Assembly: GCA_965238275.1 (NCBI GenBank)
Contig: OZ250186.1
Coordinates: forward strand, 1,792,001-1,856,000
From: Nitrosopumilus sp.
GTDB taxonomy: Archaea > Thermoproteota > Nitrososphaeria > Nitrososphaerales > Nitrosopumilaceae
Length of the DNA stretch: 64,000 nt
Reading direction: 5' to 3'
The notes below the pieces were generated by a model. That model was not told where the DNA came from. It made no database searches and worked only from the letters and a program-made list of their open reading frames with translations. This document shows, piece after piece, positions 23,017 through 50,477 of this stretch. Both the position numbers and the translations under genes were made by a program. Each line of letters starts with the position of its first letter. Position 1 is the stretch's first letter.

Positions 23017-23120
23017 CGAAACGGATCGCCTGCAGTCCAGAACACGGATTGGCGCAGAGGCATGACCGTGTTCGTTTTTCAGCACACAAGGCACGCGGGG
23101 AGTAGCTCCCCATTATTCTT

Positions 23121-29540: not shown

Positions 29541-29560
29541 GAATGCGCAAAATCATGCTA

Positions 29561-31164: not shown

Positions 31165-31327
31165 TCCTTATTTTTAACCATCAGTAAGCCACATGCTCGG
31201 CCCCCCCCCCAAAGTCGGACACGGCTATTTGCAGGATTCATGCCTGACAGATGCTGTACATGCAATCACGCGTCGTGATCCGTCCGGAATTCGAAACCGT
31301 TAATTTGGCAGTAATGCAACAGAGCAC

Positions 31328-31798: not shown

Positions 31799-31971
31799 GC
31801 TGCATGATCACGGCGACGCAGCTGCCTTTCAGGATGCTGCGGCGCGCCACCACGCCTGCACTCCAACGGGAGGCATGCCCGCCTGACTGCATTGGCATGC
31901 CGTGCTTGGGTTGTAAAGCCAGTCATCATCCAAACCCAATACTTTAATTGAACTTGCAGGACAATGCAATA

Positions 31972-32373
31972 ATGAATTATGACAACCTTTTAAAGAGAAT
32001 CATGGCATCGGACGTGAATATACGGCACAGCATCATTACAGACATCGAGGGAGCCATAAAGGCCACCGGACACCGGGAGGGGATTCGAAACTATCTTTCC
32101 CAGGAGGAGACAGAGGCATCATTGAAGAGGGCCGCATATGCATGGAAACAGAGAAAGCAGCTGTATCCAAAGATTGGAAAGGGGGTATACGCAGTGGCAG
32201 TCTTTGAGAAGATAACAAGGATTACATTTCCTGTGGACGAGGATCATCTGATATTTGTCAGCATGGGGTTTGAGCAGACACGAACGAATCTAGACGCAGG
32301 TGGCCAAAAGCACATCATTGACAACGTGCTGAACATATTGAGCCGTGATCCCACAAGGGGAGTAAGAGTCTAG
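31972..32373 (+). CDS. DUF6659/roadblock-like thaumarchaeal protein
   Basis: IRHSIITD..G....G.REG....LS.EE...IGKGVYAVAVFEKITRITFP pattern; start uncertain. Confidence 0.7.
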   Translation: MNYDNLLKRIMASDVNIRHSIITDIEGAIKATGHREGIRNYLSQEETEASLKRAAYAWKQRKQLYPKIGKGVYAVAVFEKITRITFPVDEDHLIFVSMGFEQTRTNLDAGGQKHIIDNVLNILSRDPTRGVRV

Positions 32374-32522
32374 GGTCTTTGCGCCCGGAGGCACCACGGT
32401 ATTTTTAATTTTAAAAGGGATGGCTGTTGTTGCCGCATGCGGGTTCGGGACGCCTGCCCGCAACTGGCACCGGCGGCAACCGGTTCACAATATTCATTAA
32501 ACTCTTCAACTGACAACAAAAC

Positions 32523-32873
32523 GTGACAGAGTTTGTCTACAGGCCGTACAAGCGGGTTTACGTAAGGGATGTGATCAGGCTGAACCTTGATGACTTTATC
32601 GGGATGATGACCTCGATGGAATCCATAAGCGCATACTGGGCAGACGGGGTCATGTTTGCAAGTTTTGCCATGACAGAGTCCGAGGAGCTGGCCAAAAAGG
32701 AGATGCAGGACGAGATGTACCTTGACAGGATAGTGTTTACAAAGTACGATAACTATTCCAAGACGGCCAGGTCTGCAAACAACCTAGAGATAGGCATACT
32801 GAACGTGCAGAACGGCCCTGTATACAGGAAGTTGGTTGCGTGGCTCAAGACCCAGACGGCATGGAACGAATAA
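32523..32873 (+). CDS. Conserved-type archaeal hypothetical protein
   Basis: 116-aa ORF with GTG start; YRPYKRVYV and YWADG motifs. Confidence 0.7.
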   Translation: MTEFVYRPYKRVYVRDVIRLNLDDFIGMMTSMESISAYWADGVMFASFAMTESEELAKKEMQDEMYLDRIVFTKYDNYSKTARSANNLEIGILNVQNGPVYRKLVAWLKTQTAWNE

Positions 32874-32945
32874 CGCCGGCGTAAAAAACCGGCCTGCGCA
32901 GAATCTAGGCTTTGTGCAGCAGGGTAATAAAAAACCAGGTGTTTA

Positions 32946-33131
32946 CTACTGCGGCGTGTAGTGCAGATCACAGAACAGCGCGTTTCCGTTTGGTAGCGTC
33001 CTGGCAGTTATGCTAAAACCGGAATCAAGTCCCCTTCCACAGACATAACATTCCACGCTCTTGGCCGAACTCCAAACATGTTCTGGTTTCTTGAGAATCT
33101 GCATGTCCTGTATGATCGTCTGGTTTGTCAC
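32946..33131 (-). CDS. Small zinc-binding hypothetical protein
   Basis: CYVC...FCDLH ligands; the real start may be 33104. Confidence 0.6.
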   Translation of the reverse strand: MTNQTIIQDMQILKKPEHVWSSAKSVECYVCGRGLDSGFSITARTLPNGNALFCDLHYTPQ

Positions 33132-33452
33132 CCGGGCCGTGGTGGATTTTTGACATGCAGTAGTATAGAACAGGTTGGTATTTAAAAGTACCGTACCATA
33201 ACCGTACTATTAGGTACACAGCCGTTTGGCGGCAGCAGAACAACTCATTCCCAGACGGCTCATTTTGTAGCAGACAGGGTTGCCGGCAGGTATGGACAAC
33301 GGTTGTGCGGCTTGCCTGCAGTCAGAATCCCGTCATGCTGCTGCACGGTGACTGCAGCCGGCACGCCATCCGTGTTCTGCCGGATTTTATCCGGTAGCAT
33401 GAGCGGCATTCTCATCAATTTAAATAATAAGGCATGATGATTTACCGTATGG

Positions 33453-34802
33453 GTGGACATCTTTGGAAATGCTCAGGCAAGACTGATACCGCTGGATCTG
33501 TCTGAGAACCAGTTTCAGATTTACAACAGAATCTCACGAAACTATTCGCACTCATTCCTCTTCGAATCGCTTACAGGGCCAGGCAAACTCTCTGAGACAT
33601 CAGTAATGGGCTTTGATCCGGCCGTGATCCTCAGGGGATACTCTGACAGGGTGGAGATAGTCGCAAAAGGACAGACCAGAGTCATCCGGGATGCGAATCC
33701 GTTTGAGGAGATAAGACGTCTCCTTGGGGGGACGGCAGACCAGAGATACAGGTATCTTGGAGGGGCAGTCGGAATTGTAAACTATGACACAGTCAGGACA
33801 ATAGAGGACATTCCGGATTCGCACGGTGCGCCTGCTCCGCTAATGGAGTTTGGGGTGTACGACGATGGAATACTCTACGACAACCTGCACAAGAAGCTGT
33901 TCTACTTTTACCACGACCGGGACAGGTTTGAGGAACTTCAAATCGGCGACGGGGAGTTTGGCAGATTCCATGCCGGTCATGTCAGGTCAAACATGAGCGA
34001 GTCAGGGTTCTCAGAGATTGTGGAGAGGGCAAAAAGATACATCTACGACGGGGATATCTTTCAGGCGGTTCTCTCGCGCAAGTTTACATTTGATGTCAGC
34101 GGGGACAATCTGGCATTGTACAGTGCACTTCGCAGGCTGAATCCGTCGCCATACATGTACCACCTGAAACAGGGCAGCAGCACAGTCATTGGCGCGTCCC
34201 CGGAGATGCTGGTCCGCGTCACAGGAGACACGGTAGAGACGTTTCCGATTGCAGGAACAAGAAAGATCACAAAGGATGAAAGGCAGAACCAGGCACTCGC
34301 AGACGAGCTGCTCTGCGACGAGAAGGAGCTGGCAGAACACACAATGCTGGTGGACCTTGGCAGGAACGACATAGGGAGGGTCTGCAGGTACGGAACCGTC
34401 CATCCCGAATCCCTGATGAAGGTGAGGAGGTTCAGCCATGTGCAGCACATAGTCACACACCTGGCAGGCAGGCTGGCTCCCGAAAGGGACATGTTTGATG
34501 CGTTCCAGTCCGTGTTTCCCGCAGGGACAGTCTCAGGGGCGCCAAAGGTTCGGGCCATGGAGATCATCGACGAGCTGGAGACGGATGCGAGGGGGCCGTA
34601 TGCGGGGGCAGTCGGATACTTTTCACACAACGGATGCTGCGACTTTGCAATCGGAATCAGGAGCATATTCATTAAAGGGAACAAGGGATTTGTGCAGTCC
34701 GGCGCGGGAATCGTCTCGGACTCGGTTCCCAGAAACGAGTTTATGGAGACAGAGTACAAGGCAGACGCGATGCTTCAGGCGCTAAGGGAGGCATCGGATT
34801 GA
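33453..34802 (+). CDS. trpE: Anthranilate synthase component I
   Basis: FLFES, NPSPYMY, KELAEHTMLVDLGRND and PAGTVSGAPK motifs. Confidence 0.95.
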   Translation: MDIFGNAQARLIPLDLSENQFQIYNRISRNYSHSFLFESLTGPGKLSETSVMGFDPAVILRGYSDRVEIVAKGQTRVIRDANPFEEIRRLLGGTADQRYRYLGGAVGIVNYDTVRTIEDIPDSHGAPAPLMEFGVYDDGILYDNLHKKLFYFYHDRDRFEELQIGDGEFGRFHAGHVRSNMSESGFSEIVERAKRYIYDGDIFQAVLSRKFTFDVSGDNLALYSALRRLNPSPYMYHLKQGSSTVIGASPEMLVRVTGDTVETFPIAGTRKITKDERQNQALADELLCDEKELAEHTMLVDLGRNDIGRVCRYGTVHPESLMKVRRFSHVQHIVTHLAGRLAPERDMFDAFQSVFPAGTVSGAPKVRAMEIIDELETDARGPYAGAVGYFSHNGCCDFAIGIRSIFIKGNKGFVQSGAGIVSDSVPRNEFMETEYKADAMLQALREASD

Positions 34803-35395
34803 AGGTACTGATAATAGACAACTATGACTCGTTTGTGTACAATATTGCGCAGTATGCAGGGGAGCTTGGTGCCGAGTGCGATGTCATCAGGAATGACAGG
34901 ATCACTCCAGAGCAGATAAGACAGAAGGGGTACGATGCAATAATAATCTCGCCTGGTCCCGGAACCCCGGAGGAGAGAAGGTACTTTGGCATATGCTCTG
35001 ATGTCATATCCGACATTGGGCCGACTGTCCCAATACTGGGCATCTGTCTTGGGCACCAGGGAATCATTCATGCCTTTGGCGGCAGGGTCACCAATGCAGG
35101 ATGCGTAAGACACGGAAAGACAAGCCCCGTAATCCATACGGGCTCGGATCTGTTCCGGGATGTAAGGTCCCCGTTTCAGGCAACCAGGTATCACAGCCTG
35201 GTGGGCGACAAGACGATAATTCCAGACGACTTGGAGGTTACTGCCACGGCAGCCGACGACGGGGAGATCATGGCAGTAAGGCACAAGACGTATCCCGTCC
35301 AGGGGGTGCAGTTTCATCCCGAGTCGATAATGACCCAGGACGGAAAGAAGATTATTGGGAATTTTATGAGGCAGGCAGGAGAGGCGGCACGATGA
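34799..35395 (+). CDS. trpG: Anthranilate synthase component II
   Basis: IDNYDSF, SPGPG, GICLGHQ and QFHPES motifs. Confidence 0.95.
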   Translation: MKVLIIDNYDSFVYNIAQYAGELGAECDVIRNDRITPEQIRQKGYDAIIISPGPGTPEERRYFGICSDVISDIGPTVPILGICLGHQGIIHAFGGRVTNAGCVRHGKTSPVIHTGSDLFRDVRSPFQATRYHSLVGDKTIIPDDLEVTATAADDGEIMAVRHKTYPVQGVQFHPESIMTQDGKKIIGNFMRQAGEAAR

Positions 35396-36443
35396 TTCCA
35401 CACATCATCTCCAGGCTGCAACAGGGACTGGACATCACATATGAGGAGGCCGGGGCCGCCATGACAGAGATGCTCTCGGGACGGACAGACGGCAGGCAGA
35501 ATGCAGAACTCATATCCGGCCTTGCCGACAAGGGGGAGACAGACGAGGAGCTGCTGGGAATGCTTGATGCGATGCAGAGGTTTGTCCTTGTGATGAGGCC
35601 CGGGGATGATGATGATGATGCCAAAACCACAATAGACATGTGCGGGACCGGGGGAGACGGGCTTGGAACATTCAACATATCCACTGCAGCCTCGTTTGTG
35701 GTGGCAGCGGCAGGAGGGGTAGTGGCAAAGCACGGGAACCGCTCAAATTCCGGAGCCACGGGCAGCGCCGACGTGTTTGAGTACTTTGGGTATGATCTTG
35801 GCATGGAGCCTGCAGAGGTCTCAGGGATCCTGCACAGGCACGGCATATGCTTCATGTTTGCGCAAAAGTTTCACCCGGCAATGAGGCATGTGGCAGCTGC
35901 CCGCAAAGCCCTTGGGAGAAGGACCGCATTCAACCTGCTGGGGCCGCTTGCAAACCCTGCAGGCACAAAGAACCAGCTCGTCGGGGTGTCCTCAGAGGAC
36001 ATGCTTGAGAGAATCCCGCTCATCCTCAAAAGGAACGGGGCAGAATGCATCATGACTGTGCGGGCTGCAAACGGGTTGGACGAGTTTTCCACCAGCTCCC
36101 CCAACTCGGTGTGCATGCTCAAGGAAGGCAGCATAACCAGGAGCGTGGTAAAGCCCGAGGATGTCGGACTTTGCAGGTCGAGCCTGCGCGACATACAGGT
36201 GAGCACGGGCGACGAGGCGATGAGGGCCTTTGTGGGTGTGCTTGACGGAACGGCAAACAGGGCGATGATTGAGACGGTGGCCCTCAATGCCGCAGGCGGG
36301 CTTGTCGTGGCGGGCATCTCAGAGAGCATCGGAGAGGCAGTGGAGACTGCGCTGGGCGTCATGGACGGGGGCGGCGCCTTTTCACTCTTGGAGAGGTTTG
36401 TCGCAGATACTGGCACCGTATCACTGATAAGGGGGCTGCTGCA

Positions 36444-36447
<4 letters not shown>
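35392..36447 (+). CDS. trpD: Anthranilate phosphoribosyltransferase
   Basis: CGTGGDG, FNIST and KHGNRS motifs; ATG at 35392 overlaps the trpG stop. Confidence 0.95.
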
Positions 36448-37249
<802 letters not shown>

Positions 37250-37253
<4 letters not shown>

Positions 37254-38437
37254 GGTATCCCAAAGACGGCAGGTTTGGGGAGTTTGGCGGGAGATACATA
37301 CCGGAGACTCTCGTGCCTGCAATCGAGGAGCTGGAGAAGAGCTACCTGAGGTTCAGAGGCGATCCCGACTTTAAGAGCGAGCTGAGGTACTATCTGAAGT
37401 CATACGCGGGACGCCCCACGCCGCTGTACTATGCAGAGAACCTCTCAAAGAGGCTGGGGGGCGCAAGGATATACCTCAAGAGGGAGGATCTGCTGCACGG
37501 CGGGGCCCACAAGATCAACAACACGCTGGGCCAGGCACTGCTTGCCAAGAGGATGAGAAAAAAGAGGATAATAGCAGAGACCGGGGCCGGCCAGCACGGG
37601 GTTGCCACTGCCATGGCATGCGCGGTGCTGGGGATGAAGGCCGAGGTATACATGGGATACAAGGATACCATAAGGCAAAAGCTCAACGTGTTCAGGATGA
37701 ACATGCTTGGATCCAGGGTCCGTCCCGTGGAGTCAGGCTCCAAGACGCTCAAGGATGCCATCAACGAGGCGATTCGGGACTGGATTACAAACGTCAACAC
37801 CACGTACTACCTGCTGGGCTCGGCAGTGGGCCCGCACCCGTATCCGGTGATGGTAAGGGACTTTCAAAGCGTGATAGGAAAAGAGATAGCCTCCCAGATG
37901 AGGGGGATTGGCAGGAGACCGGATACCGTTATTGCCTGCGTCGGCGGAGGATCCAACGCGATAGGCACGTTTTATCCCCTGGCCTCGACTGACGCGGAGA
38001 TGATCGGCGTGGAGGCTGCGGGGCTGGGACTCAGGTCGGGCAAGCATTCGGCATCCATTTCTGCGGGAAGCAAGGGCGTGCTTCACGGCATGATGACGTA
38101 CCTGCTCCAGAACAGGGAGGGGCAGATAATGGAGACGCACAGCATCTCAGCAGGGCTTGACTATCCGGGCGTGGGGCCGGAGCATGCATACTACAAGGAC
38201 TCAGGAAGGGTCAGGTACAGGGCGGCAAGGGACGCCGAGGTGATTGACGCGTTTCTGATGCTGACCAGGACGGAGGGGATAATTCCGGCGCTTGAATCGG
38301 CCCACGCGGTGGCCGAGGCCGTCAAGGTTGCAAAAAAGGGCAAGAAGACAGAGTCGGTCGTGGTGACGCTGTCTGGACGCGGGGACAAGGACGTGGAGGA
38401 AGTGCAGAGGTACTTGAATGAAAATGTCAAGAATTAG
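37250..38437 (+). CDS. trpB: Tryptophan synthase beta chain
   Basis: [23 protein letters not shown] and LSGRGDKD motifs; TTG start overlaps the trpC stop. Confidence 0.96.
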
Positions 38438-39227
38438 GGACAGGCTTGCCAGGCTGCAGGCAGACAACACCAGGGCGCTGATACCGTACGTGATGGCAGG
38501 ATTTCCAGACGAGGACGCCACGGTCTCTGCGGTAAGGGGGCTGGTAAAAGGAGGGGCAGACATAATTGAGTTGGGATTTCCGTTTTCCGACCCGCTTGCA
38601 GACGGGCCGGTGATTCAAAACGCAGGGACCGTATCGCTGGAGAACGGCACGAGCATCGCGGGATTCTTCAGGATGGTCAGGAGGATCAGAAAGGAGACTG
38701 ACATCCCGCTGGTGCTGATGACATACGCCAACATCCTGTACCACCGGGGGTATGCAAGGTTCGTATCAGAGGCGGCAGGGGCTGGGATAGACGGGCTCAT
38801 CATACCGGACATGTCAGTGGAGGAATCAGAAGAGTATCTTGACGCTGCAAGGGGCAGGGTGGACACCATATTTCTGATATCACCCAACACTGCCAAGGCA
38901 AGGGTGCAGAGGATTGCAAGGGAGTCGTCGGGATTCCTGTATCTCGTGGCCGTGTACGGCACGACCGGCGTGGGCAGGGGCATCAAGGAGTACACGCTCA
39001 GGGCAATCAAAAACGCCAAGGAGTATACGGGGGGAGGGATTCCCGTCGGGGTGGGTTTTGGCGTGTCGAGTCCGCAGGATGTCAGGGCGTATGTCGCGGC
39101 AGGCGCAGACGCGGTGATTGTGGGCAGCGCGTACCTGAAGCTTATCCAAAAAACGCCAAAAGACGAGATCGAGTCTGCCGTGGCGTCGTTTACGAGGGAA
39201 CTCAAGGAGCAGACAAGGCCGGGCTGA
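38418..39227 (+). CDS. trpA: Tryptophan synthase alpha chain
   Basis: [17 protein letters not shown] and VGFGV motifs. Confidence 0.96.
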
Positions 39228-39514
39228 TTCGGTGCACACATCTGGAGGCGGTTAGGCAAGTCAGCTGCAATGAGAAGAGGATAACATGACATCTCGTCAG
39301 TCGACTACATGGAGGGAATACTCTAGCGCACTTTGACATCAGAATGCGTACATGCCTGCAGGAATCATCCCCACCCCAGCATCAGTCAATACGTTGTCAG
39401 CCAGTTCCATGTCATCTGCAAGACTTTGGAAACAGGAATATGTCTTGGGAACCGGATGTGATTTGAAGGGTGACAGATATCCACAAATATAAGTAGGCAG
39501 GTTGAATCAACGAT

Positions 39515-39799
39515 ATGCCACTAAAACGCGCCAGCAGGGGCCGCACCAAGGGCGGAAAGGGATCCTCTGGAGTCATCCAGTGTACAAACTGCGGACAGAC
39601 TGTTCCAAAGGACAAGGCAAAAAAGGTCACATCAAGGCTGAATCTGGTTGAGCACACGCTGGCAAAGGAGCTGCGTGCCCAGGGCGCATACATTGCATCG
39701 CCGACGGTCCTCAAATGGTACTGCATCTCCTGTGCAATCCACTTTAAGATTCTAAAGATAAGATCCGCTGACAACAGGCGAAAGCGCGGCAGGCTCTAG
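39515..39799 (+). CDS. rps26e: 30S ribosomal protein S26e
   Basis: CTNCGQTVPKDKA and YCISCAIH motifs. Confidence 0.96.
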   Translation: MPLKRASRGRTKGGKGSSGVIQCTNCGQTVPKDKAKKVTSRLNLVEHTLAKELRAQGAYIASPTVLKWYCISCAIHFKILKIRSADNRRKRGRL

Positions 39800-40368
39800 T
39801 CACGAATCTGTCTTGCAGTGACGATCATCCTCTGAACCAGCGTGATTCCTGCAATTATGATTACGATTATCACGGCGTACTCCATGAATCCTATCATCCC
39901 TATTATGGCAACCACCAGTAATCGTTCGGCCCTCTCGCCGATCCCAACCCCCTGAAGCCTTATGCCAAGCTGATCCGACTTTGCCCTGGCATAGCTGACC
40001 AGCAGGGACAGCGTCACTGCAAGCAGCACGAGTATCGGATCTGCGTACCCTCCCACAAGGATTCCCAGAAATATTGCAACCTCGGCAATCTTGTCAAACA
40101 TCGCATCAAGGTAGGAGCCCTTGTTGGAGGTCTTGCCGATGACCCTGGCCACCTGGCCGTCCACCATGTCAAAGAATCCGGATACAAGCAGCAGTACGCC
40201 CCCGATTATCAGCCCGTACTGGATTCCCAGGCCGTACGATACGGCAGAGGCCAGCGCAAATCCAAGCCCGACGGCAGTCCAAAAGTTTGGAGACAGTCCG
40301 GTGGATGCAAACCCGCGTCCAACCTTCTCAAGTGCAGGCCTCAGGGTATCCCTCAGGTTGTTGAGCAT
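39796..40368 (-). CDS. CDP-alcohol phosphatidyltransferase (archaetidylinositol phosphate synthase-like)
   Basis: DMVDGQVAR...GSYLDAMFD signature; likely start MLNNLR at 40368. Confidence 0.9.
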   Translation of the reverse strand: MLNNLRDTLRPALEKVGRGFASTGLSPNFWTAVGLGFALASAVSYGLGIQYGLIIGGVLLLVSGFFDMVDGQVARVIGKTSNKGSYLDAMFDKIAEVAIFLGILVGGYADPILVLLAVTLSLLVSYARAKSDQLGIRLQGVGIGERAERLLVVAIIGMIGFMEYAVIIVIIIAGITLVQRMIVTARQIRD

Positions 40369-40475
40369 ATGATGGACTCGTGTATATGGTATAATAACAT
40401 GAATAGTGTCAGGCCGGAGATGCATGCCAGGTGATCCTGCCGGTACCCCCAATATGCCAAGATTCTGCGTGTCTG

Positions 40476-41351
40476 CTACCGGTCCCGGGCAACGCCCTGC
40501 GCAACCAGCACGGAGATTATCTTTGCGGCAAGCGATGCGGTGGCGCCGTTGTCATGGTATGGGTTCAGTTCCACAATGTCGGCACCGGACACCTGCACGT
40601 CGCGCAGGGAATGAATCATGTCAAAGAGCTCCCGCGATGTGATGCCTACCGCCTCGGGGCTGCCCACTCCGGGGGCAAACGCGGGATCCAGCACGTCCAG
40701 GTCAAAGCTGGAGTACACTGCACCAAAGGAGGAGGCATAGTCTCGGAGCAGCTGCGGTCCCTGGCCTGCCCGTATCTGGCCGTCTGAGATGGTGCGGATG
40801 CGGTTCTCATTCAGAAACTCTAGCTCCTCGCCTACAAACGCCCTGGCCCCGACATGCAGGATGCCGTCAGCGCCCCTCTCCTCTGCTATCCGCCGGAGAT
40901 AGGATGCGTGGCTCAGCCGCGTCCCGTCAAACTCGTCGCGCAGGTCGTAGTGGGCATCAAACACCACGTATCCCGTGTCCTTGGGAAAGCTCATGTATGC
41001 GCCATACGTGATGGAGTGCTCCCCCCCAAGCATTATCACCGGACGGCCCCTGCCGACCAGTTCGGCAGTAACCCTCCCCACCATCTTGATCATCTCAGAG
41101 GAGACTGCAGTGTGGCGGATGTTTCCCACGTCATCAATGTGTGCAGATTCCAGGTCCACGCCAAGCTCGGGGTGGAATATCTCGATGTTGTCAAACGAGT
41201 TGCGTATTGCATCCGGTCCGAACCGGCACCCGGGCTTGTAGGATTGGGTCGCGTCAAACGGAACGCCAAACAGGGTTGCAACAGGCATTGAGGCATCACC
41301 AGACGATGTGATTGACGAGTTTGCATTGAGGTACAGATCAGCGTAGCTCAT
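40476..41351 (-). CDS. speB: Agmatinase
   Basis: GGEHS, DAHYD and SFDLDVLDPAFAPG motifs. Confidence 0.93.
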   Translation of the reverse strand: MSYADLYLNANSSITSSGDASMPVATLFGVPFDATQSYKPGCRFGPDAIRNSFDNIEIFHPELGVDLESAHIDDVGNIRHTAVSSEMIKMVGRVTAELVGRGRPVIMLGGEHSITYGAYMSFPKDTGYVVFDAHYDLRDEFDGTRLSHASYLRRIAEERGADGILHVGARAFVGEELEFLNENRIRTISDGQIRAGQGPQLLRDYASSFGAVYSSFDLDVLDPAFAPGVGSPEAVGITSRELFDMIHSLRDVQVSGADIVELNPYHDNGATASLAAKIISVLVAQGVARDR

Positions 41352-41353
41352 GC

Positions 41354-43216
41354 CTACACCATCAGCTGCGGGCGTCGGGACATGTGCCGCGGCATGTTCA
41401 GTCCTGCAAACGGCATGTCGCGTGTCTGCATGCCGGTCTCCTCTATAAACTCCTCAAACGTCAGATCCCTTACGCCTCCTGTCACCCTGTCACGCACGCT
41501 GAGGGTCTCGGAGCCTGACTCCTTTGGGCCCACCACCATGATGTACCGTATCCACTCCTTTTCGGCATCGCGTATCCTCTTTCGGATGCTCTCGTTTCGG
41601 TCGTCAATGTCCACCCTGAGACGGCAGGCAGTCAGCCTGTCTGTCAGGGATTCGCAAAAGTCGTTGAACTCGGCCTGTATCGGGATGATTCTCACCTGTG
41701 TTGGCGAGAGCCAGAACGGAAGGTGCGGCTTGATTCCCTTTTTGGAGTCGGCATCGGCCTTTTCCAGCAGCGCATAGATTATCCTCTCGATTGCCCCGCT
41801 CGGGGAGTTGTGAAGGATTATCGGGGGTATTGCCTTGTTGTTCTCGTCGATGAACTCTATGCCGTACCTGCTCCCGTTTTCGATGTCTATCTGGTCAGTC
41901 GAGAGGGCAGATGCCTTGCCCATGCCGTCTACAAAGTTAAACTCCCACTTCATGACAAAATAAAAGAACCTCTTCTTCCACATCTCCACGAGCACCGGCT
42001 TGCCGTGCCTTGCCACCATCTCCTGGACTGCCTGCCTGTTCTCGTCGTAGAATGACTCGGTCAGCCTTACTGCCATCTCATAGTCAGAGTCCTCGATTCC
42101 AAGATTGTTCAGAACCTTCTGCGAGAGATCAAAGCGCACCTTGAGCTCCCCTACTGCCTGATCAATGTCGGTGCAGAATGCATGGCAGTCAGGCATGGTA
42201 AAGGCCCTGAGCCTCCTGAGTCCGACCAGCTCGCCGGACTGCTCCCGCCGAAAGCTGTACCGCGTCATCTCGTACAGCCGGTACGGCAGGTTCTTGTATG
42301 ACATTTGGAACTGGTTTGCCATGAGAAACTGCCCGAAACATGCGGCAAACCTCAAAAAGAGCTTCTTGCCGTCCGAGTCGATGCTGTACTGCCTTGCAGG
42401 AAACCTGTTAAAGTAGCTCACCATGCTCGGGTGATCCGAGTCGTACATGATCGGGGTCTCTACTTCGTATCCGCCGTACTCTTTTACCATCTTGGTGACG
42501 TAGTTTTCTATCAGGGACTTTATCAGGCGGCCGTTGGGAAAGAACCTCATGTTTCCAGAGTCAGATGCGGACTCGTAATCTGCAATGGCCAGCTTTTTCA
42601 TCAGGGATACGTGCGGGGGCGGTGAGTCGACCCGGCGTTCCTTTTTTGACTCGTACTTTGCCAGCGTCTCCAGCTTTTTGTGTCCTGAAAAGTCAAACTT
42701 GCCCACGTCAGTCAGGGTTCCGTCAGGGGACATTATCTTCCAGTACGAGCGCATGCCTGATTCGCCCTTTAGGGCCTCAGAGGTGGCCTCGCCATCATGG
42801 GTGGCAGAATCTGCAGTTATCGTCTTGGAGCTCTCGGCCAGCGGGTGCCCCTTTACCTGGATGTGGTAGGACTTTGTCCAACCAAACGGGGAACGCGATA
42901 CTTCAAGATCAGAGGGAATGCCGTCCATTACGCGGAGTATTGCAAGGGCCTCAGACGGCCTTGCCAGGTCGGAGCTCAGGTGTGCATACGGGTACAGCAG
43001 GAGCCGCTTGCAGCCGATCTTTGCCATGGAGTCCTTAATCTGGGACATGGCGTTTCTGGCAACATCCGGATTGTCGCCGGACTCCACAGCGACAAAGGCC
43101 ACCACCACCTCCTCAATCCTTGTGGTGCCGGCATCGCCGATCTCCTCTGCCGTCTTGATCTCCCTTTTTGTGGGGGTGTACTCTATGCTGTCGCAGTGAA
43201 GCTGCAGTATCCGCAT
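41354..43216 (-). CDS. thrS: Threonine-tRNA ligase (archaeal type)
   Basis: Archaeal editing domain YPYAHLS; LRFAACFG and FTMPDCH motifs. Confidence 0.96.
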   Translation of the reverse strand: MRILQLHCDSIEYTPTKREIKTAEEIGDAGTTRIEEVVVAFVAVESGDNPDVARNAMSQIKDSMAKIGCKRLLLYPYAHLSSDLARPSEALAILRVMDGIPSDLEVSRSPFGWTKSYHIQVKGHPLAESSKTITADSATHDGEATSEALKGESGMRSYWKIMSPDGTLTDVGKFDFSGHKKLETLAKYESKKERRVDSPPPHVSLMKKLAIADYESASDSGNMRFFPNGRLIKSLIENYVTKMVKEYGGYEVETPIMYDSDHPSMVSYFNRFPARQYSIDSDGKKLFLRFAACFGQFLMANQFQMSYKNLPYRLYEMTRYSFRREQSGELVGLRRLRAFTMPDCHAFCTDIDQAVGELKVRFDLSQKVLNNLGIEDSDYEMAVRLTESFYDENRQAVQEMVARHGKPVLVEMWKKRFFYFVMKWEFNFVDGMGKASALSTDQIDIENGSRYGIEFIDENNKAIPPIILHNSPSGAIERIIYALLEKADADSKKGIKPHLPFWLSPTQVRIIPIQAEFNDFCESLTDRLTACRLRVDIDDRNESIRKRIRDAEKEWIRYIMVVGPKESGSETLSVRDRVTGGVRDLTFEEFIEETGMQTRDMPFAGLNMPRHMSRRPQLMV

Positions 43217-43491
43217 AACTTCAAACAGAAGTGCTAATTGAAATAAATCTTTACTTTGGAATTTTCGCCATATTTTTTAACCTTTGTATCTTTTGGGAGG
43301 CAATGCGGACGTACGAGATCTGCAAAAAGGCGACACAGGAGGATTTGGAAGCGGTGCAGCCAAGGTTCGCCGACATCGTCGAAGATCTGGGTGAAGTCGG
43401 GGACACGTTCAGTCGTGCCGGGATCATCAAGATGCCAGAAAGCATGTGCCAATGAGCACGAATATGTCCTGAATTCAGGCACCCGTTAGAT

Positions 43492-44256
43492 TTGTCAGTC
43501 GAGCCTAACAAAAAACCGTTTAACAAAGTTTTGATAATTCCCGCCGCAATAGCGGCAATCGTCGTGCTGGTCGCCGCATTCGCAATCAACGCAGACATTG
43601 AAGAACGCAGAGCATTTGAACAAGTCAAGACCGACTTATGCGACGTGTACCTGGACGGGTTTGACGTAAAGCTAGAATTATGCATGCCCAACCCGTCCTC
43701 GACAGATGCCAAGGTGGACAGGATCGACGTCCGTGTCTTTGCAGGTGACAACAACATAGCAGGGGTCACCATCCCCAAACACATCACAATACCTGAGAGT
43801 GAAGTGGTTGTTGTCGATGCAGACATTACCATTAAAAAAACGGGTTTGTTGGCTGCTGGCTTGGATTACCCTTTCGACAAGGATGTCAGCCTGGTGGTCG
43901 AGGGCACCGTGTACTATGATTCATCGTTTGGAACTTACGAATACCACTTCTCAGAACAACCCAATTCGTCCCAACGTCCCAACGAAGCATCAATCCGACA
44001 ACAATGTAGTGGCGCCATTAATGATCTTTTGGATTATTGGGGATATGCCCTCCAGGACAGCTCGTCCAAAGCAGAATTTGAACAGATGGTGCTGGGCAAT
44101 GGCTACGACTTTGAATCTAGGACACTGAAAATTCATGAAATATGTGATGTTAGATCGTGGCAAGGACTGACGAGCGCCAGCCCGCATTTGGACGCGCAGA
44201 CAAAACAAAGATTTGTCGATTTTTTTTCTGAACTAAATACGATGACCGGTTCTTGA
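43492..44256 (+). CDS. Membrane-anchored LEA_2-like domain protein
   Basis: N-terminal transmembrane segment; NP motif and beta-rich core (IPES..VV...I, LVVEGTV). Confidence 0.6.
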   Translation: MSVEPNKKPFNKVLIIPAAIAAIVVLVAAFAINADIEERRAFEQVKTDLCDVYLDGFDVKLELCMPNPSSTDAKVDRIDVRVFAGDNNIAGVTIPKHITIPESEVVVVDADITIKKTGLLAAGLDYPFDKDVSLVVEGTVYYDSSFGTYEYHFSEQPNSSQRPNEASIRQQCSGAINDLLDYWGYALQDSSSKAEFEQMVLGNGYDFESRTLKIHEICDVRSWQGLTSASPHLDAQTKQRFVDFFSELNTMTGS

Positions 44257-44475
44257 TCCAAGGCGTCTTTTGGCGACAGCGTGTTGTAATTCTACAAGTC
44301 AGGCAATCCGGCCTTCTCCTTATACGCTGCCGAACGCGGGGTGCATGACATGCAGGCATTGCGGCAGACCGGTCGAACGTAGCGGTAACATGATGTGCAG
44401 AAGATGCAGCGGCAAAAAATATACTTGTGTGCGTTGCGGGAACGGACTGCGCCACAATGACCCCGCCCACGCGGA

Positions 44476-45183
44476 TCAGAGCCATGCGTGCGACAGGAAA
44501 AGCCCCTTTAGGATCCCTAGCGCCACTGTAAACGCGTATGTGGCGGCTATTGCCAATGCCAGAACACCGACCGCCTTGCCCGTCCCGAACCCGTGCGATA
44601 TCTTTGTCGCCTTTACGAACAGCACAAAGGCCCACGCCATGAAAGAGGCCAAAAATGCGTTTTGAATTAGGAGGATGATACCGTGACCGGCGAAGTCGAG
44701 CGCGTATGACGGCGACAGGTCTGGATCCTGGTCTAGCGAGCCCCCTCCCACGTAGCCGCCACGCATTGATTCTAGGGGATCAAACAGGTGCATGCCGGCC
44801 AGGGTGGTGGCGACCAAAACCGCGATTGGGATCAGACAGAATGACAGCGTCGGAAACGTATCCCTGAACTTGCGGTTTCCTCCATACCTGCTTCCGATCC
44901 AGAATATCGCAGCAATGAACAGGAGGTTCTGCAGGATGGCACTGATGAGCGATATAGCGTATGCCCACATGCCATCGCCAAAGCCACTGAATGTGCCGCT
45001 GCCCGGCTCGGGCCATATGGCGGCAGACGGCAGGGCAGACACAAGGCACACGGCCGCAAATACCGCCACGGACGATGCAAGATAGCGGTCAGGGGCCATG
45101 GATATCGTCCTGAATGTGTCGCCCGGTCTTGCCATCGTGCCAGCAACGGCACAGAGCGCGCGACTACACCCGACTCCTTCCAT
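44476..45183 (-). CDS. Yip1-family membrane protein
   Basis: RPGDTFRTI, five transmembrane segments, GG..KF and HGFGTGKA motifs. Confidence 0.75.
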   Translation of the reverse strand: MEGVGCSRALCAVAGTMARPGDTFRTISMAPDRYLASSVAVFAAVCLVSALPSAAIWPEPGSGTFSGFGDGMWAYAISLISAILQNLLFIAAIFWIGSRYGGNRKFRDTFPTLSFCLIPIAVLVATTLAGMHLFDPLESMRGGYVGGGSLDQDPDLSPSYALDFAGHGIILLIQNAFLASFMAWAFVLFVKATKISHGFGTGKAVGVLALAIAATYAFTVALGILKGLFLSHAWL

Positions 45184-45965
45184 GATACACGCCCGTATGC
45201 TGATCCGGCATCTTATATGTCATCATCATTTTGGGGCACGAGTCGCGCGCGGGCCGGCCTGACACGCTCCGGACGTTTGCCGCGCATGCTAGCAGATCTC
45301 GGCCGACGCGCGTCCTGCGTGCCCGGCCCGCTTGTGCTCATGTCAGTAGCGGTACCGGTGACCATTGGCGTCTTGGTGAGCCGGGTGTTGTCTTTCATTA
45401 GGCGGAGCGGCGTCCTTGCCGGCTTGTCGGTGACGGCTGGCCTGGCGGTCTTCTTCATGGACGTGGCCATGATCGTGCATGTACAGAACAGCTAAAACTG
45501 CGCACTTGCCGCTGCCGCCGCTTGCAGTCCGAATATGTACAGTTGTGGGAAATCAGACCAGCCATAGGAGTAATCGCCGTGATGGCGCACGCGTGGCGCG
45601 CGACCGGGTGGTGACGTCTTGCCGTCCTAGTAACCGGAGCGCGCCGCCCCTGCGTATTCGTTGTTCCAGCACGTCTCAAGCAGAGGGCCTAAGGAATCTA
45701 CCATGCGCGGCTCGGTAGGAATCGTGATTTGGCCGCTTAGGAAGTGCCACGCGGGGGGTCAGGAGGGGCCAAACTGTAGTGATATGGACAAGACTGCGAC
45801 AGACACAATCGCTTTAATAAACGGACGCGCGAGGCACTTCATGGACGGAAGGGCTACGAGGTTTTTTTGGAGCAGGAAGGGGTTCACCATAATATTCATT
45901 TTGGCGGCCATCGGACTGGCGTCCGTCGTTTCTAAAGCGATATATTCGACGCTCAACCTGTTCCG

Positions 45966-46364
45966 CTAGTCTCGTTTGCCCAGAAATAAACGGCGCGTGC
46001 TAATGGAGTTTGCTGGCGGGAATCCAATCGGTGCGCTTTTCGGGGTTGGCCTTCTGGTACGCCCTAACCCCCTCACAGGATTGGCGTCACGCCAAGCTTT
46101 CTCCAGCGCGGGGCGCTTTTCTTTGCCTTTTTCCAAGTATGCGGCAACCCCCTCAGAATTGGCGTCACGCCAGGCTTTCTGGTAAGCATACACCTTTTCC
46201 TTGTTCTTTTGGCGGTACGCCTTTTGCTGCGCGGCTACCTTTGCCTTGTTCTTTTGGTGATACTGTTTGGCGTATTCGGATTTGCTCGTTCGGGAACCGG
46301 ATGCGGTCTTGGCAGGTTCGCCTGGCAGGTTCGCCTGGCAGGTTCGCCTGGCAGGTTTGGCCAC
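45966..46364 (-). CDS. Basic repeat protein or remnant (YxxKNKEK / KAWRDAN repeats)
   Basis: Helical repeats of the kind seen N-terminal to phage HNH endonucleases; no nuclease motif present. Confidence 0.4.
   Translation of the reverse strand: MAKPARRTCQANLPGEPAKTASGSRTSKSEYAKQYHQKNKAKVAAQQKAYRQKNKEKVYAYQKAWRDANSEGVAAYLEKGKEKRPALEKAWRDANPVRGLGRTRRPTPKSAPIGFPPANSISTRRLFLGKRD
46310..46357 (+). repeat. 13-bp tandem repeat, about 3.7 copies
   Basis: TGGCAGGTTCGCC three times, then TGGCAGGTT. Confidence 0.92.
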
Positions 46365-46547
46365 GGTACAGTCATGGAATGGCCTTTATTTTGTCTGTCG
46401 ATGCCATATGCACCGCACGGGAACCACCTGCGCGGCATTCGGCCGCCGTGTGCATCCAGCCGCAACCGACGAAAAGATGCAAAGGGAAAGTAAACCGCTG
46501 AAAACTACACCCACAATAAATCTTTGTAGTTGGTTTTGTTTGCCCTT

Positions 46548-47975
46548 TTATATAGCGGCGAGCGAAAGTTTGTGCAGACAGATTTCTCCGTAACGTCCTA
46601 GTGCCCTTTCTGGCGTTCTGTCAGATCTTCCAAAATCATCGTTGTCGGGTCCAAGCCGACTTGTCAAGCTGTCCTTTGCAGGACTGCCTGAACCGTGATC
46701 CTCGCGCCTTGTGACGACCTCGACATCTGCAATGATGCCTCCACAATCTTTGTGGGCTTGGCCGCCAGTCTCCTCCATGTGGAGACGTCCGTTAGTGAAA
46801 ATGATTTGTGCCGCGCTCTTGTCTGCATGGTGGTGCCATCCGCATGCCGTGCAGACAAATGATTCACTGTTCCTTGATTTCTTGTCCACGGTCTTGCATC
46901 TCATGCACGTCCTGCTCGTGTTCTTGTATTCCACGCGTTTTGGAATCCCGCCCTTCTTTTTCATCTGCCATTCAAGCTGGCCTCGAAACTCCTCAATCCG
47001 GGAGTATGCCATCTCGCGGTTCAGTCCGGTCTTTGATGCCTTTCCGTTGGATCGCCTCATTTTGGTCAAGTCCAGGTCTTCCAAAAACAACACGGACAGA
47101 TTCTTCGTTATCCGTCTGGCAATACCTGTCTCGTTGTGTTTCTGCCTGTCAGATATCTTTTTCAATTCGCGTTTTATCTTGCGGCCGATTTCGCTCCATT
47201 TGCGCGAACCATGCACGCATTTTGACCGGCGTAACTTTAACTGGTCAATCCTGTCACCGTCATGCCGTTTGCAACCGCTGGGAACGTTGTACAGTTTTTC
47301 GTTCCCATGCTCGTCTGCGACTGCCGCCAGGTGCCTTACTCCAAGGTCCAGTCCTGCCATCGAACCGGCCGCCTGTTCGGGGTCCGGAACCTCGATCTGC
47401 AAGTGCAGTTTGAATTCGCGATCACCGTCCCTGATCCTGCGCGTAATCTTCTCTGTGACATCAATCATCTGGAACGACACGGGCCTGCCTTCGGGGATCT
47501 TCGTGCGCGGTCTTACTTCCCCGAGTCCGGGCAGGAATACGGTGTCGTTGTCCCGCAGTTTTGGCTTTCCGCGTGAATTCAGCGAACGCAACCTCGTGAT
47601 TTTTTTGCCCCTCCTCATCAGGCTCGACGGTTCCGTCCACCTGTTGTGTTTGTACGTTTTGGTCTTGTCGAGCCTTATCTGTTTCTTGCGCCAGATACGT
47701 TTTACATGCTTTACTCGGTTTGCCTTGCGGAATTTGGCTACAGCCTGGAATGCCTGTTTTGAGGCGGCCTCATGCATGTGGACGCTGTTGGCCAGGTTGA
47801 ATTCCCCGCGCCATCCAGTTATCAGGTTGTTGATGTCAAACTGCGTGATTCTTGGATGTGCAAGTTTCATCATGATTGCCATGTCGTAAATGATGTCGGT
47901 TTCCAGGGAGCATTTCACGATCTTGCGTGACAGTTCTCGTGATTGTATAATTTTGATGCTTTTGCTGACAATCAT
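46548..47975 (-). CDS. tnpB: TnpB-family RNA-guided endonuclease, paralog of 29722-31164
   Basis: MIVSK start matches copy 1; GLDLG, FLEDL, CMRC/CTAC and HADKSAA motifs. Confidence 0.92.
   Translation of the reverse strand: MIVSKSIKIIQSRELSRKIVKCSLETDIIYDMAIMMKLAHPRITQFDINNLITGWRGEFNLANSVHMHEAASKQAFQAVAKFRKANRVKHVKRIWRKKQIRLDKTKTYKHNRWTEPSSLMRRGKKITRLRSLNSRGKPKLRDNDTVFLPGLGEVRPRTKIPEGRPVSFQMIDVTEKITRRIRDGDREFKLHLQIEVPDPEQAAGSMAGLDLGVRHLAAVADEHGNEKLYNVPSGCKRHDGDRIDQLKLRRSKCVHGSRKWSEIGRKIKRELKKISDRQKHNETGIARRITKNLSVLFLEDLDLTKMRRSNGKASKTGLNREMAYSRIEEFRGQLEWQMKKKGGIPKRVEYKNTSRTCMRCKTVDKKSRNSESFVCTACGWHHHADKSAAQIIFTNGRLHMEETGGQAHKDCGGIIADVEVVTRREDHGSGSPAKDSLTSRLGPDNDDFGRSDRTPERALGRYGEICLHKLSLAAI
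46553..46786 (-). ncRNA. Putative omegaRNA scaffold (copy 2)
   Basis: Hairpins co-vary with copy 1; GCAA and GAAA tetraloops. Confidence 0.65.
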
Positions 47976-48040
47976 GTACACAATAGAACTTGTTTTTTTA
48001 AAAAGGAGGTGCATTGATTGCAGGAACATGCTCTTCACTA
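46553..48040 (-). mobile_element. tnpB-only element with terminal inverted repeats and flanking TA (copy 2)
   Basis: Left end on the - strand TAGTGAAGAGCATGTTCCTGCAA (48040-48018); right end TAGCGGCGAGCGAAAGTTTGTGCA (from 46553); TA at 46551-46552 and 48041-48042. Confidence 0.75.
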
Positions 48041-48182
48041 TAGGAATGGGGCAATTAACTGAATCTTGCGCTTGGCATTATGCGCGTGGGTGTCGTCTGC
48101 TCCAGACAGGTCTGGAAGGGCGGCATTGGCAGATGCAGGAGAATTCATCCACGGAGCGAATCCAGAGTGCTGCCCGGTTCCC

Positions 48183-48512
48183 TCACAGTTTTGAGCCGAT
48201 TGCAATGATTGAGCGGAGGATCAGGGCGGACAGTCCCATCTGAGATGTAAGAAACTTTACTGCACCTGCAAGGGGTTCTTCTCCACGGTATCCCTCGTCA
48301 TAGACCATCTCGATTGAACCCCTGTCAGTATCCACAAAGGATGTTATGATGGAGTAGGTGCCATGCGTCTGGTCTGTCTGGTAGAGACGCAGTTCAACCC
48401 GGCGCACTTCAAACCCGTCCTGTACAAAGCCACCCGAGGAGAGCATAACCTCAACGTCATCAGGACTGCAGTCCACCCTTTGGGCATCAGGAACATCAAC
48501 TATCCGCATCAT
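48183..48512 (-). CDS. Conserved-type thaumarchaeal hypothetical protein
   Basis: Likely start MMRIVDVP; natural composition. Confidence 0.65.
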   Translation of the reverse strand: MMRIVDVPDAQRVDCSPDDVEVMLSSGGFVQDGFEVRRVELRLYQTDQTHGTYSIITSFVDTDRGSIEMVYDEGYRGEEPLAGAVKFLTSQMGLSALILRSIIAIGSKL

Positions 48513-48791
48513 ACTTCCTGTGAATGCATTCACATAAGTATAATTTTGGCGAATCCTCTGGCATCGCCTCTGTGGCAGGAGTGTGTGTAGACAGTCGCAG
48601 TTCGGCCGTGCGCCATTTTCCCGGCCTGCCCGATATTCAAAATAGTGGCGCACACCAGAGCATCCCTGGAATAGAATGCATGGCAGTTATTGCAGACTCA
48701 AAATACATGGGAGTGTGACTGGGAATTTTTGGATATAATTCTTGGGCATTGGCTGTAAGACTTTTTATAATAACGGGGGCGCCTTGGAGTC

Positions 48792-49139
48792 ATGCAGTAC
48801 TTTGTGGCTCTGAAGACCGGACAGAAACGCGTCGCATCCGCAAGGGAGTATCTTAACGGACTCACAGGTGGCAAGGCAATGCCGGCACTGGCACTGGCAG
48901 ATACAAAATCAGGCGTCTGGGAGCCGGTCGGCGAGGAGAACCTGTACGCGTTTGTAGACGAGTCCTCAGGGTTTGTCCTGACGGACAACAGCGGATACAT
49001 CCTTGCGCTGGTGGACAAAAGCGGTGCCTCAAAGACGATAGTGCAGGGCGTCACTGTACAGCAAAAGGAGGCGCTGGAAAAGACGTTCCGCTCAGACGGC
49101 ATAGAAAAGTTTGAAGGCAAGGTAATCCTGCCGGTATGA
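48792..49139 (+). CDS. Conserved-type hypothetical protein
   Basis: 115-aa ORF with a TTTATAA box about 25 bp upstream. Confidence 0.75.
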   Translation: MQYFVALKTGQKRVASAREYLNGLTGGKAMPALALADTKSGVWEPVGEENLYAFVDESSGFVLTDNSGYILALVDKSGASKTIVQGVTVQQKEALEKTFRSDGIEKFEGKVILPV

Positions 49140-49187
49140 CCCAAAACAACGTAAACCTTTAGTTAGACTCGTTTAAAGAAGAGTAAA

Positions 49188-50477
49188 TTGGACGGATTTT
49201 CCGAAGAAGTCGAGGCAAGCGGTCATCTGATTGACTCCATGATAATGAGCAGAATCTTTGAGAGCATAATCAACCTTCAGGGAGACTTTCAGATTCAGGA
49301 GATCAACATCGGAAAGAGAAAGACGGACAAGTCCTATTTCAGGCTGCGCGTGACCGGCAGGGACAAGAAGCATCTTGAGGTGCTCCTAGAGGAGATTCAC
49401 AGGGAGGGGGCAGTCTCCAAGATTCGAAAGGAGACAAGGCTGGTAGAATCCCCAAGGGACTGCGTTATGCCGGATAACTTTTACAGCACGACAAACAACG
49501 ACACTGAAATCTTTCATGACGGGAGATGGGTTGCAGTGGACAACATGATGATGGACAAGTGCATCAGGGTGCAAAATGGTGCAGCATCCTGCGTCCCGGT
49601 CAGGGACGTAAGAAAGGGAGACCAGATAGTGGTAGGCGAGGACGGGATAAAGATCACGCCGCCTGAGCGTCCAAGGGAGGGGGCCAACATATTTGAGTTT
49701 ATGGGAAGTTCAAGCTCTAGCGAGAGGCCGACCCAGCACATTGCAAGAAAGGTGGCAGACGACATATACGATACCAAAAAGGCAGGCGGCAGGGTGATTA
49801 TAGTAGGGGGCCCTGCAATCGTACACACGGGAGCTGCAGATACCGTGGCAGAGATGATACGGCTGGGATTCATAGACGGAATCCTTGCAGGAAACGCACT
49901 TGCAGTACACGACATAGAGTATGCCACGCTTGGGACGTCGCTTGGGATGAATGTTCACGATGCGTCCCTGGCACACCACGGGCACAGAAACCACATGGAT
50001 GCAGTCAATGCCGTGTTCAAGGCAGGCTCGATTGCAGAGATGGTAAGGTCAGGAGTGCTGACAAGGGGAATAATGTACGAGTGCATACAGAACAACGTTC
50101 CGTTTGCCCTGGCAGCCTCAATCCGGGATGACGGGCCGCTCCCTGACGTGACAGTCGACATAGTCGAGGCACAGCGAAAATACAAGAAGATCCTCAAGGG
50201 CGCAGACATGGTAATAATGGTCTCCACGATGCTCCACTCCATCGCAGTCGGAAACATGCTGCCTGCCAACGTCAAGGTGATTGTCGTGGATATCAGCCAG
50301 CCGACAGTCACAAAGCTGATGGACCGGGGAACGTGGCAGGCGCTGGGGATTGTAACTGACGTGGGCGCGTTCCTGCCCATGGTGGCAGATAACATCCGAA
50401 GAAGGATGAAGACGGACGACAGCACTCAGACGAATCCCGGATCCGCACGCATCTCCAGCACACCAGGCAGTTCATGA
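49188..50477 (+). CDS. TIGR00300/LOR-SDH family protein (putative ornithine cyclodeaminase)
   Basis: GHLIDS, FYSTTN, FEFM.SSSSSERP, GNALAVHDIE and SIRDDGPLP motifs. Confidence 0.88.
   Translation: MDGFSEEVEASGHLIDSMIMSRIFESIINLQGDFQIQEINIGKRKTDKSYFRLRVTGRDKKHLEVLLEEIHREGAVSKIRKETRLVESPRDCVMPDNFYSTTNNDTEIFHDGRWVAVDNMMMDKCIRVQNGAASCVPVRDVRKGDQIVVGEDGIKITPPERPREGANIFEFMGSSSSSERPTQHIARKVADDIYDTKKAGGRVIIVGGPAIVHTGAADTVAEMIRLGFIDGILAGNALAVHDIEYATLGTSLGMNVHDASLAHHGHRNHMDAVNAVFKAGSIAEMVRSGVLTRGIMYECIQNNVPFALAASIRDDGPLPDVTVDIVEAQRKYKKILKGADMVIMVSTMLHSIAVGNMLPANVKVIVVDISQPTVTKLMDRGTWQALGIVTDVGAFLPMVADNIRRRMKTDDSTQTNPGSARISSTPGSS

Follow-up and report, generated by a model that had tools for sequence, protein, structure and literature searches.

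We analyzed a 64-kb window (the whole stretch of DNA under study, 64,000 nucleotides (nt), positions 1,792,001 to 1,856,000 of contig OZ250186.1) from the genome of a Nitrosopumilus sp., here called G000, which is a single contig of 2.217 Mb and 99.9% complete. The window holds two copies, A and B, of an element made of a tnpB gene between terminal inverted repeats. The element is described here together with its relatives elsewhere in G000 and in comparison genomes with the same element ends, OZ244651.1 (G237) and OZ244137.1. The two copies comprise the following features.

29559-31163, + strand: copy A of the element, 1605 bp including a nested miniature inverted-repeat transposable element (MITE), delimited by alignment and end motifs
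29559-29585, + strand: left terminal inverted repeat of copy A, TATAGTGAAAAGCGAAAGTTCGTGCAA, with 23 nt identical to the left end of IS630-family elements in G237
29627-29716, + strand: MITE nested in copy A, 90 bp, with an inverted repeat of 16 nt and a duplicated CAG on either side (29624-29626 and 29717-29719)
29722-31164, + strand: tnpB of copy A, 480 amino acids (guided_TnpB, 117 bits)
30914-31163, + strand: candidate omega-RNA scaffold of copy A, from a conserved covarying structure that takes in the right repeat (31137-31163)
46551-48042, - strand: copy B of the element, TATAG...CTATA inclusive, delimited by alignment with copy A, end motifs and the same ends in 22 genomic copies
48018-48042, - strand: left terminal inverted repeat of copy B, TATAGTGAAGAGCATGTTCCTGCAA, which lacks 2 nt compared with its counterpart in the relative L031
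46551-46577, - strand: right terminal inverted repeat of copy B, ...CTGCACAAACTTTCGCTCGCCGCTATA, from the end motif
46548-47975, - strand: tnpB of copy B, 475 amino acids from the ATG homologous to that of copy A (guided_TnpB, 109 bits)
46551-46800, - strand: candidate omega-RNA scaffold of copy B, overlapping the 3' end of tnpB and ending at the right repeat, from a conserved covarying structure
46531-46550, - strand: putative guide segment of copy B, the flank just past the right end, placed by analogy with TnpB and Fanzor guide RNAs (excerpt of PMC10711439)

Copies A and B were about 81% identical at the nucleotide level, from just before the ATG to the common ...ACTTTCGCTCGCCGCTATA and not beyond. 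The left-end motif TATAGTGAA(A/G)AGC..GTTC.TGCAA matched the window exactly twice, at 29559-29585 (+) and 48018-48042 (-), as did the 19-nt right end, at 31145-31163 (+) and 46551-46569 (-), and neither occurred in 100 shuffles. Outside the ends, ungapped identity between the two copies fell to the random level, with 28 of 100 positions matching on the left side and 18 of 100 on the right side. The initial annotation had described copy B as having a diverged paralog about 15 kb away in the opposite orientation, with common termini and unrelated flanks, and this description held, as no homology extended past the proposed ends. Its label of a TnpB element with terminal inverted repeats also stood, since the left end TATAGTGAAAAGCGAAAGTTCGTGCAA and the reverse-complemented right end TATAGCGGCGAGCGAAAGTTCGTGCAA matched at 22 of 27 positions (manual count). 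By contrast, the claim that the spacers between left end and ATG are unrelated had to be dropped: the spacer of copy A holds the MITE, and its remaining 68 nt are about 72% identical to the spacer of copy B. The MITE was missing from the corresponding place in the other genomic copies.

The frame listed for copy B (46548-48038) starts with a GTG at 48038, an upstream extension of the ATG at 47975 that is homologous to the start in copy A. The TAA stop codon of copy B spans the right element end, and the TAG stop of copy A consists of the terminal TA and the first base of the flank. If the TA is the duplicated target, the element proper of copy B is 46553-48040. Side observations were made on the surroundings of both copies. 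The inverted repeat of the MITE is AGACATAATCCGTAAT / AGACGTAATCCGTAAT, and 12 further copies were found in G000 (including 615464-615558, 643112-643206 and 652694-652789); 2 of these are nested in tnpB elements as well, though not at the site seen in copy A. About 200 nt beyond copy B on its right side, the 13-nt unit TGGCAGGTTCGCC is repeated perfectly in tandem, in 3.7 copies (window 46310-46357).

Both proteins matched the Pfam families OrfB_IS605 and Cas12f1-like_TNB above the curated cut-offs. Both also exceeded the cut-off of 100 bits of the NCBIfam model guided_TnpB ('RNA-guided endonuclease TnpB family'), whereas IS607_TnpB reached 91 bits against a cut-off of 350 and IS200_TnpB 61 bits against 425. 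The RuvC D/E/D residues, which had been said to be retained in both copies, were indeed found at D214/E303/D389 in copy A and D210/E299/D385 in copy B, and both CxxC pairs are kept. In an alignment of 8 sequences with relatives down to 26% identity, D214, E303, D389, C361, C364, C379 and C382 were invariant, and the D/E/D and zinc-finger residues align with the catalytic motifs of solved TnpBs; E303 lies 58 residues ahead of the zinc-finger residue C361. The dN/dS ratio between the copies was 0.21 overall (dS 0.67); it was lowest over the N-terminal 200 codons (0.13) and highest in the C-terminal tail (0.57), with a value of 0.19 for the RuvC/zinc-finger core. Judged from these ratios, the tnpB genes of both copies are under purifying selection.

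We then counted the element across the complete genome. A search with copy A gave 24 right ends; with nested insertions allowed for, the left end was identifiable as well in 22 elements. All flanks differ, and the ends are TATAG...CTATA throughout, except for one TGTAG...CTATG and one degenerate left end. An open reading frame (ORF) of at least 474 amino acids was present in 14 of the 22; one intact copy close to the consensus is at G000:1779808-1781325. Copy B is an old, diverged member of this family: it forms a lone lineage, with 82% identity to the nearest copy, and the 2-nt deletion in its left repeat may have cost it its mobility. Relatives with the same element ends had TnpB proteins of 74% amino-acid identity in G237 and 55-57% in OZ244137.1. 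In the latter genome both element ends are altered together, to TATAC(C/T)GAC(G/A)CGCAAAAGTT, and the inverted repeat is thus under joint constraint.

Further TnpB-related sequences were noted beside this family. In L036, L037 and L040, which are from other genera of the same archaeal family, TnpB homologues of about 30% identity lie inside inverted repeats of another type (GGGAATTATATA..., 29-45 nt, 80-90% complementary), and TnpB within inverted repeats seems common in this archaeal family. In the window itself, a TNB zinc-ribbon match with one in-frame TAG was found at 23073-23249 (+), in an open frame of 166 amino acids that directly follows a gene for dihydroxy-acid dehydratase (21328-23016), and is probably what remains of another TnpB family.

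The genome was searched for the transposase families that could be linked to such elements. No match to Y1_Tnp or to Resolvase (serine recombinase) was found in the complete G000 genome by family searches that were positive in control genomes, and DDE_3 gave 34 matches. One of the IS630-family elements in G000, at 1873253-1874348 (1096 bp), ends in TATAGTGGCGATCAAAAGTTCTTGCAA and TATAGTGACGCGCAAAAGTTTTGACAA; its end TATAGTGGCGATCAAAAGTTCTTGCAA matches the right repeat of the tnpB element at 23 of 27 positions (manual count). Its 354-amino-acid ORF reached 175 bits with NF033545 'IS630 family transposase' (cut-off 100) and also matched Pfam DDE_3, HTH_32, HTH_29 and HTH_23. Three more DDE_3-bearing elements of G000, of 1005-1104 bp, carry repeats of the same type.

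In G237, the IS630 elements are 1103-1106 bp long and encode a transposase 87% identical over 326 amino acids to the G000 ORF. Their left end, TATAGTGAAAAGCGAAAGTTCGTTCCA..., has 23 nt identical to the left end of the tnpB element, and their right end, ...TTTTGCAGGAACTTTTGATCGCCACTATA, matches that of the tnpB element at 25 of 29 positions (manual count). The ends have the same polarity relative to the gene in both kinds of element; therefore, tnpB occupies the position that the transposase gene has in the insertion sequences. When up to 1 mismatch was allowed, the repeat pattern TATASYGRCRNNCAAAAGT gave 55 matches in genome G110 and 101 in G237, and its reversed control gave 0; pairs spaced by about 1.1 kb flank DDE_3 and pairs spaced by about 1.49 kb flank tnpB. 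Repeat sites in G000 were located by a Hamming scan. The pattern was present in 35 of 201 sampled genomes of the archaeal family, some of them without this TnpB clade, and all three genomes with this clade have many matches. Taken together, we infer that the tnpB element is an IS630-type element without a transposase gene, and that it is probably mobilised in trans by an IS630-family transposase. The IS630-type repeats therefore account for both the TA borders and the inverted repeats.

Two kinds of insertion into IS630-type repeats or tnpB elements were observed in addition. An insertion of about 5.9 kb, with an IS630-family DDE_3 gene at 889457-889867, interrupts the tnpB element at G000:883619-891004. 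Another insertion sequence, starting with ACGCCATGTGTT..., is found at G000:827297, 2149881 and 1920786, always directly behind the ..AAAG of an IS630-type repeat; two of the interrupted elements carry tnpB and the third is an IS630 element with a transposase. The shared position suggests that it targets IS630-type repeats.

We also analyzed the target site. Insertion of IS630-family elements takes place at TA, which is duplicated in the process (excerpt of PMC13565253), and TA was present at both borders of 20 of the 22 copies. A transposase-bearing copy in G000 lies in a (GTA)n run, ...GTAGTAG-TA-element-TA-GTAGTAG..., and the periodicity is restored only when one TA is removed together with the element. 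Two tnpB copies lie in repeated sequence, and their uninterrupted paralogs carry exactly 2 nt at the site of the element. Because the paralogs hold 2 nt, addition of the whole TATAG...CTATA is excluded, and a TA duplication fits. The preference of the initial annotation for transposition over segmental duplication was thereby strengthened, given also the 22 elements at unrelated sites with similarity ending at the same TATA on both sides, and the same ends in two other species. The repeat around the copy at 2139391-2140905 is a tandem coding repeat and is uninformative on the target. In an empty-site comparison of G000 with the nearest species, coding flanks were about 76% identical at the nucleotide level and the sequence adjoining the insertion was unalignable.

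The 3' end of the element was analyzed for RNA structure. Between the G000 and G110 subfamilies, whose TnpB proteins are 55-57% identical, the last 250 nt are far better conserved than the proteins, and the changes are compensatory. RNAalifold, run on 15 sequences (8 from G000, 1 from G237 and 6 from G110), returned 57 pairs, 10 of them with changes on both sides. In this structure 98.9% of the cells were paired, compared with 35-47% when the partners were slid by 1-3 columns; this figure is favoured by the use of one alignment both to derive and to score the structure, and the compensatory pairs (10, compared with 0-3 when slid) and the slid controls are firmer. The covariation score was reached in 0 of 500 shuffles. 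One helix joins GAAAG to CUUUC inside the right inverted repeat; therefore, the putative transposase-binding repeat would be part of the RNA scaffold. Rfam gave no match with E up to 1 in window 29000-49000. In Fanzor1, the guide-RNA scaffold includes the terminal repeat (Yoon et al.; excerpt of PMC10711439), and the guide RNAs of TnpB and Fanzor extend about 15 nt beyond the element end (same excerpt). By analogy, the 3' RNA is a candidate omega-RNA, and its guide would be the flank beyond the TA.

The flanks of the elements were compared on both sides, with the following counts.

tnpB elements of G000: C at left -1 in 21/21; T at left -3 in 17/21; G at right +1 in 9/22 (C 9, A 3, T 1)
G110 subfamily 1: C at left -1 in 6/6; T at left -3 in 2/6; G at right +1 in 4/9
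G110 subfamily 2: C at left -1 in 6/6 (two rows with the same 8-nt flank); G at right +1 in 3/6

The target of the IS630 family is CTAG. Transposase-bearing IS630 elements in G237 and G110 had C at -1 in 18 of 20 ends, both sides alike, and T at -3 in 5 of 20; at the IS630 sites of G000, C at -1 was counted by eye in 12 of 19. Because transposase-bearing ends show it too, the C at -1 may stem from the transposase. The T at -3 and the difference between left and right cannot come from it, and would carry the trace of a transposon-adjacent motif (TAM), 5'-TNC followed by TA. As a separate observation, the paralogous sites 172973, 576451, 762339 and 759604 of G000 match or nearly match the putative guide (the right flank) and have AA or TG in place of TA. 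This would fit if sites with an intact TA and TAM get filled, and may also be due to chance.

Overall, with a probability that we put at roughly 0.8, we read the feature as a transposable element of IS630 (Tc1/mariner-like) type that is non-autonomous and in which, between IS630-family terminal inverted repeats, tnpB and a 3' omega-RNA scaffold replace the transposase gene in the same orientation. An IS630-family DDE transposase supplied by the separate 1.1-kb insertion sequences would cut and paste it in trans, and insertion would take place at TA, with duplication of the TA. Read-through of the right end would then yield the omega-RNA, with the right repeat in its scaffold and the flank past the TA as guide. 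TnpB with this RNA would cut an emptied or naive site, the left flank T-N-C plus TA serving as TAM, and recombinational repair from a filled copy would restore the element, as has been shown for IS200/IS605 TnpB. Copies would thus persist where the left flank lets TnpB cut the emptied site. We advance the full form of this proposal only tentatively, and consider it possible but somewhat doubtful: that TnpB/omega-RNA replaced the transposase within IS630 ends, that the right repeat is at once transposase site and guide scaffold, that T-N-C plus TA is the TAM, and that cutting of the emptied site rescues a cut-and-paste element.

Several observations weigh against this reading. No composite joining an IS630 transposase and this tnpB in one repeat pair was found in G000, G110 or G237; nor was one found at two loci with DDE_3 and another TnpB family at most 2.5 kb apart or among 9 related contig loci (two records only). 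A serine recombinase, too, was seen at none of the loci examined. Because no composite was found, the case for mobilisation in trans is made by repeat similarity and co-occurrence. Within the matching subfamily G000 has a single intact transposase, and the left repeat that goes with it, TATAGTGACGCGC..., differs; the subfamily with the identical left end occurs in G000 only as solo ends, at 1082170 and 1974593. At the empty sites the 2 nt read TG in two paralogs of the copy at 708708-710217 and AA in two paralogs of the copy at 883619..891004. The TG paralogs belong to a gene family with about 25% divergence, in which the change between CTG and CTA is synonymous, and the AA paralogs to a repeat with about 8% divergence; paralog divergence could explain the letters, with a joint chance of such mismatches of about 6%. 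Among the contigs of runs X2, X6, X7 and X8 compared with window 44500-50000, no joint skipping copy B was found, and its junctions were bridged on the left in X2, X7 and X8 and on the right in X2; contigs cannot reveal rare excision. The closest independent copies are 97-98.9% identical and none are identical, so that movement is not very recent. Finally, the C at -1 is also a preference of IS630 itself, and the T at -3 was not seen as a preference in the left flanks of G110.

Other origins of the element were weighed on the same evidence. Since TnpB classically belongs to IS200/IS605 (as in the name of the Pfam family OrfB_IS605), and since the left flank is conserved and the right is not, as in that family, the element could be an IS1341-type member, in which a Y1 TnpA acting in trans moves a solo tnpB in the form of single-stranded DNA and inserts it 3' of ..C-TATA without duplication. 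We regard this as very improbable: the complete genome has no Y1_Tnp match, the ends are 27-nt inverted repeats common to DDE_3 insertion sequences and not asymmetric subterminal hairpins, the empty paralogs hold 2 nt and not 0 or 4, and the IS200_TnpB score is far from its cut-off. Just as improbable is an IS607-type element moved by a serine recombinase, in which the TA at the borders would be the crossover dinucleotide and not a duplication. A shared border dinucleotide would look like a TA duplication, and IS607_TnpB did score above IS200_TnpB, but far under its own cut-off; moreover, no Resolvase domain was matched in the genome, IS607 is described without terminal inverted repeats (excerpt of PMC13565253), and the repeats are those of IS630-family elements. 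It is also barely credible that TnpB alone spreads the element by RNA-guided cutting and copying. No transposase lies inside the element and the left-flank motif resembles a TAM, but homing requires homologous flanks and the 22 copies lie in unrelated sequence, and the repeats shared with DDE elements would be left unexplained.

A different doubt concerns present activity. Copy B, and perhaps the whole family, could be immobile relics of a past burst, with TnpB and its RNA serving the host or simply persisting and with the repeats being historical. The lone lineage of copy B, the deletion in its left repeat, its bridged junctions with no skipping joint, its continued purifying selection and the lack of two identical independent copies all point this way. 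We nevertheless judge this unlikely. Unless there is movement or homing, 22 copies with identities of 97-99%, conserved ends and 14 intact ORFs would be difficult to maintain, and the catalytic residues are intact, unlike those of the known domesticated TnpBs (excerpt of PMC10691335). In any case, this possibility bears on present activity and not on the identity of the element as a non-autonomous IS630-type element.

If the proposed mechanism is true, the element would be a prokaryotic counterpart of the Fanzor1 arrangement, in which TnpB parasitises IS630, a selfish element on a selfish element. The element provides a clean, many-copy example of an RNA-guided nuclease gene living in a cut-and-paste DDE transposon without a transposase of its own, an association known mainly from one survey (excerpt of PMC10691335) and from eukaryotic Fanzors. 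The predictions are a TAM of 5'-TNC plus TA, an omega-RNA of about 250 nt that contains the transposase-binding repeat, and mobility through one identifiable IS630-family transposase, for which the candidates are that at G000:1873267-1874244 and its G237 form. For annotation, the element accounts for about 22 'IS605 OrfB' genes in a genome without an IS605 or IS607 transposase. In literature on Thaumarchaeota, Nitrosopumilus, sponge symbionts or TnpB with inverted repeats or IS630, we found no paper on this archaeal element.

We finally compared the element with known systems. It shares its length of about 1.5 kb, a tnpB as sole gene, many copies and a (here candidate) guide RNA at the 3' end with the IS1341-type solo tnpB elements; these have no inverted repeats, no duplication and depend on a Y1 TnpA according to the excerpt of PMC13565253, in contrast to the inverted repeats, TA borders and Y1-free genome found here. 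Membership of IS200/IS605 (IS1341) was rejected on the absence of Y1_Tnp matches and the 27-nt inverted repeats, and that of IS607 on the absence of Resolvase matches, the presence of inverted repeats and the IS607_TnpB score. With IS630/ISY100 the element has in common the terminal inverted repeats and the TA at both borders (excerpt of PMC2170065); it differs in lacking a transposase gene and in a right flank without the G preference, whereas the transposase-bearing copies show the C-TA-G preference noted above.

The likeness to Fanzor1 of eukaryotes and their viruses is one of arrangement: a TnpB homologue is carried by a cut-and-paste element that has inverted repeats and makes short duplications (here putatively of the TA), and non-autonomous copies encode the nuclease only, as in the present element (excerpts of PMC10711439 and PMC3627910). 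In Fanzor1 both the repeat and the duplication are in the guide-RNA scaffold (excerpt of PMC10711439); here the repeat is predicted to be. Membership of Fanzor was rejected because the catalytic glutamate is not near the zinc finger and the relatives are archaeal: the layout is that of a canonical TnpB, with 58 residues between E303 and the zinc finger where Fanzors have about 6 (excerpt of PMC13565253).

The closest description is that of Altae-Tran et al. (2023), who linked TnpBs to IS630-family DDE transposases with symmetrical ends and described solo TnpBs bounded by the ends of transposase-bearing relatives (excerpt of PMC10691335); the association is repeated in a 2026 review (excerpt of PMC13565253). 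As in the 'DDE-6' branch of that survey, the element has symmetrical IS630-type ends and the 3' end of tnpB lies at most 250 bp from the element end, a likeness by published description that does not imply placement on the DDE-6 tree (excerpt of PMC10691335). The known elements of that branch hold a DDE transposase and a separate helix-turn-helix protein (same excerpt), whereas here the transposase is in separate 1.1-kb elements and the hosts are archaea labelled Nitrosopumilus. The element thus belongs to a class already described in that survey, and no new category is needed for it.

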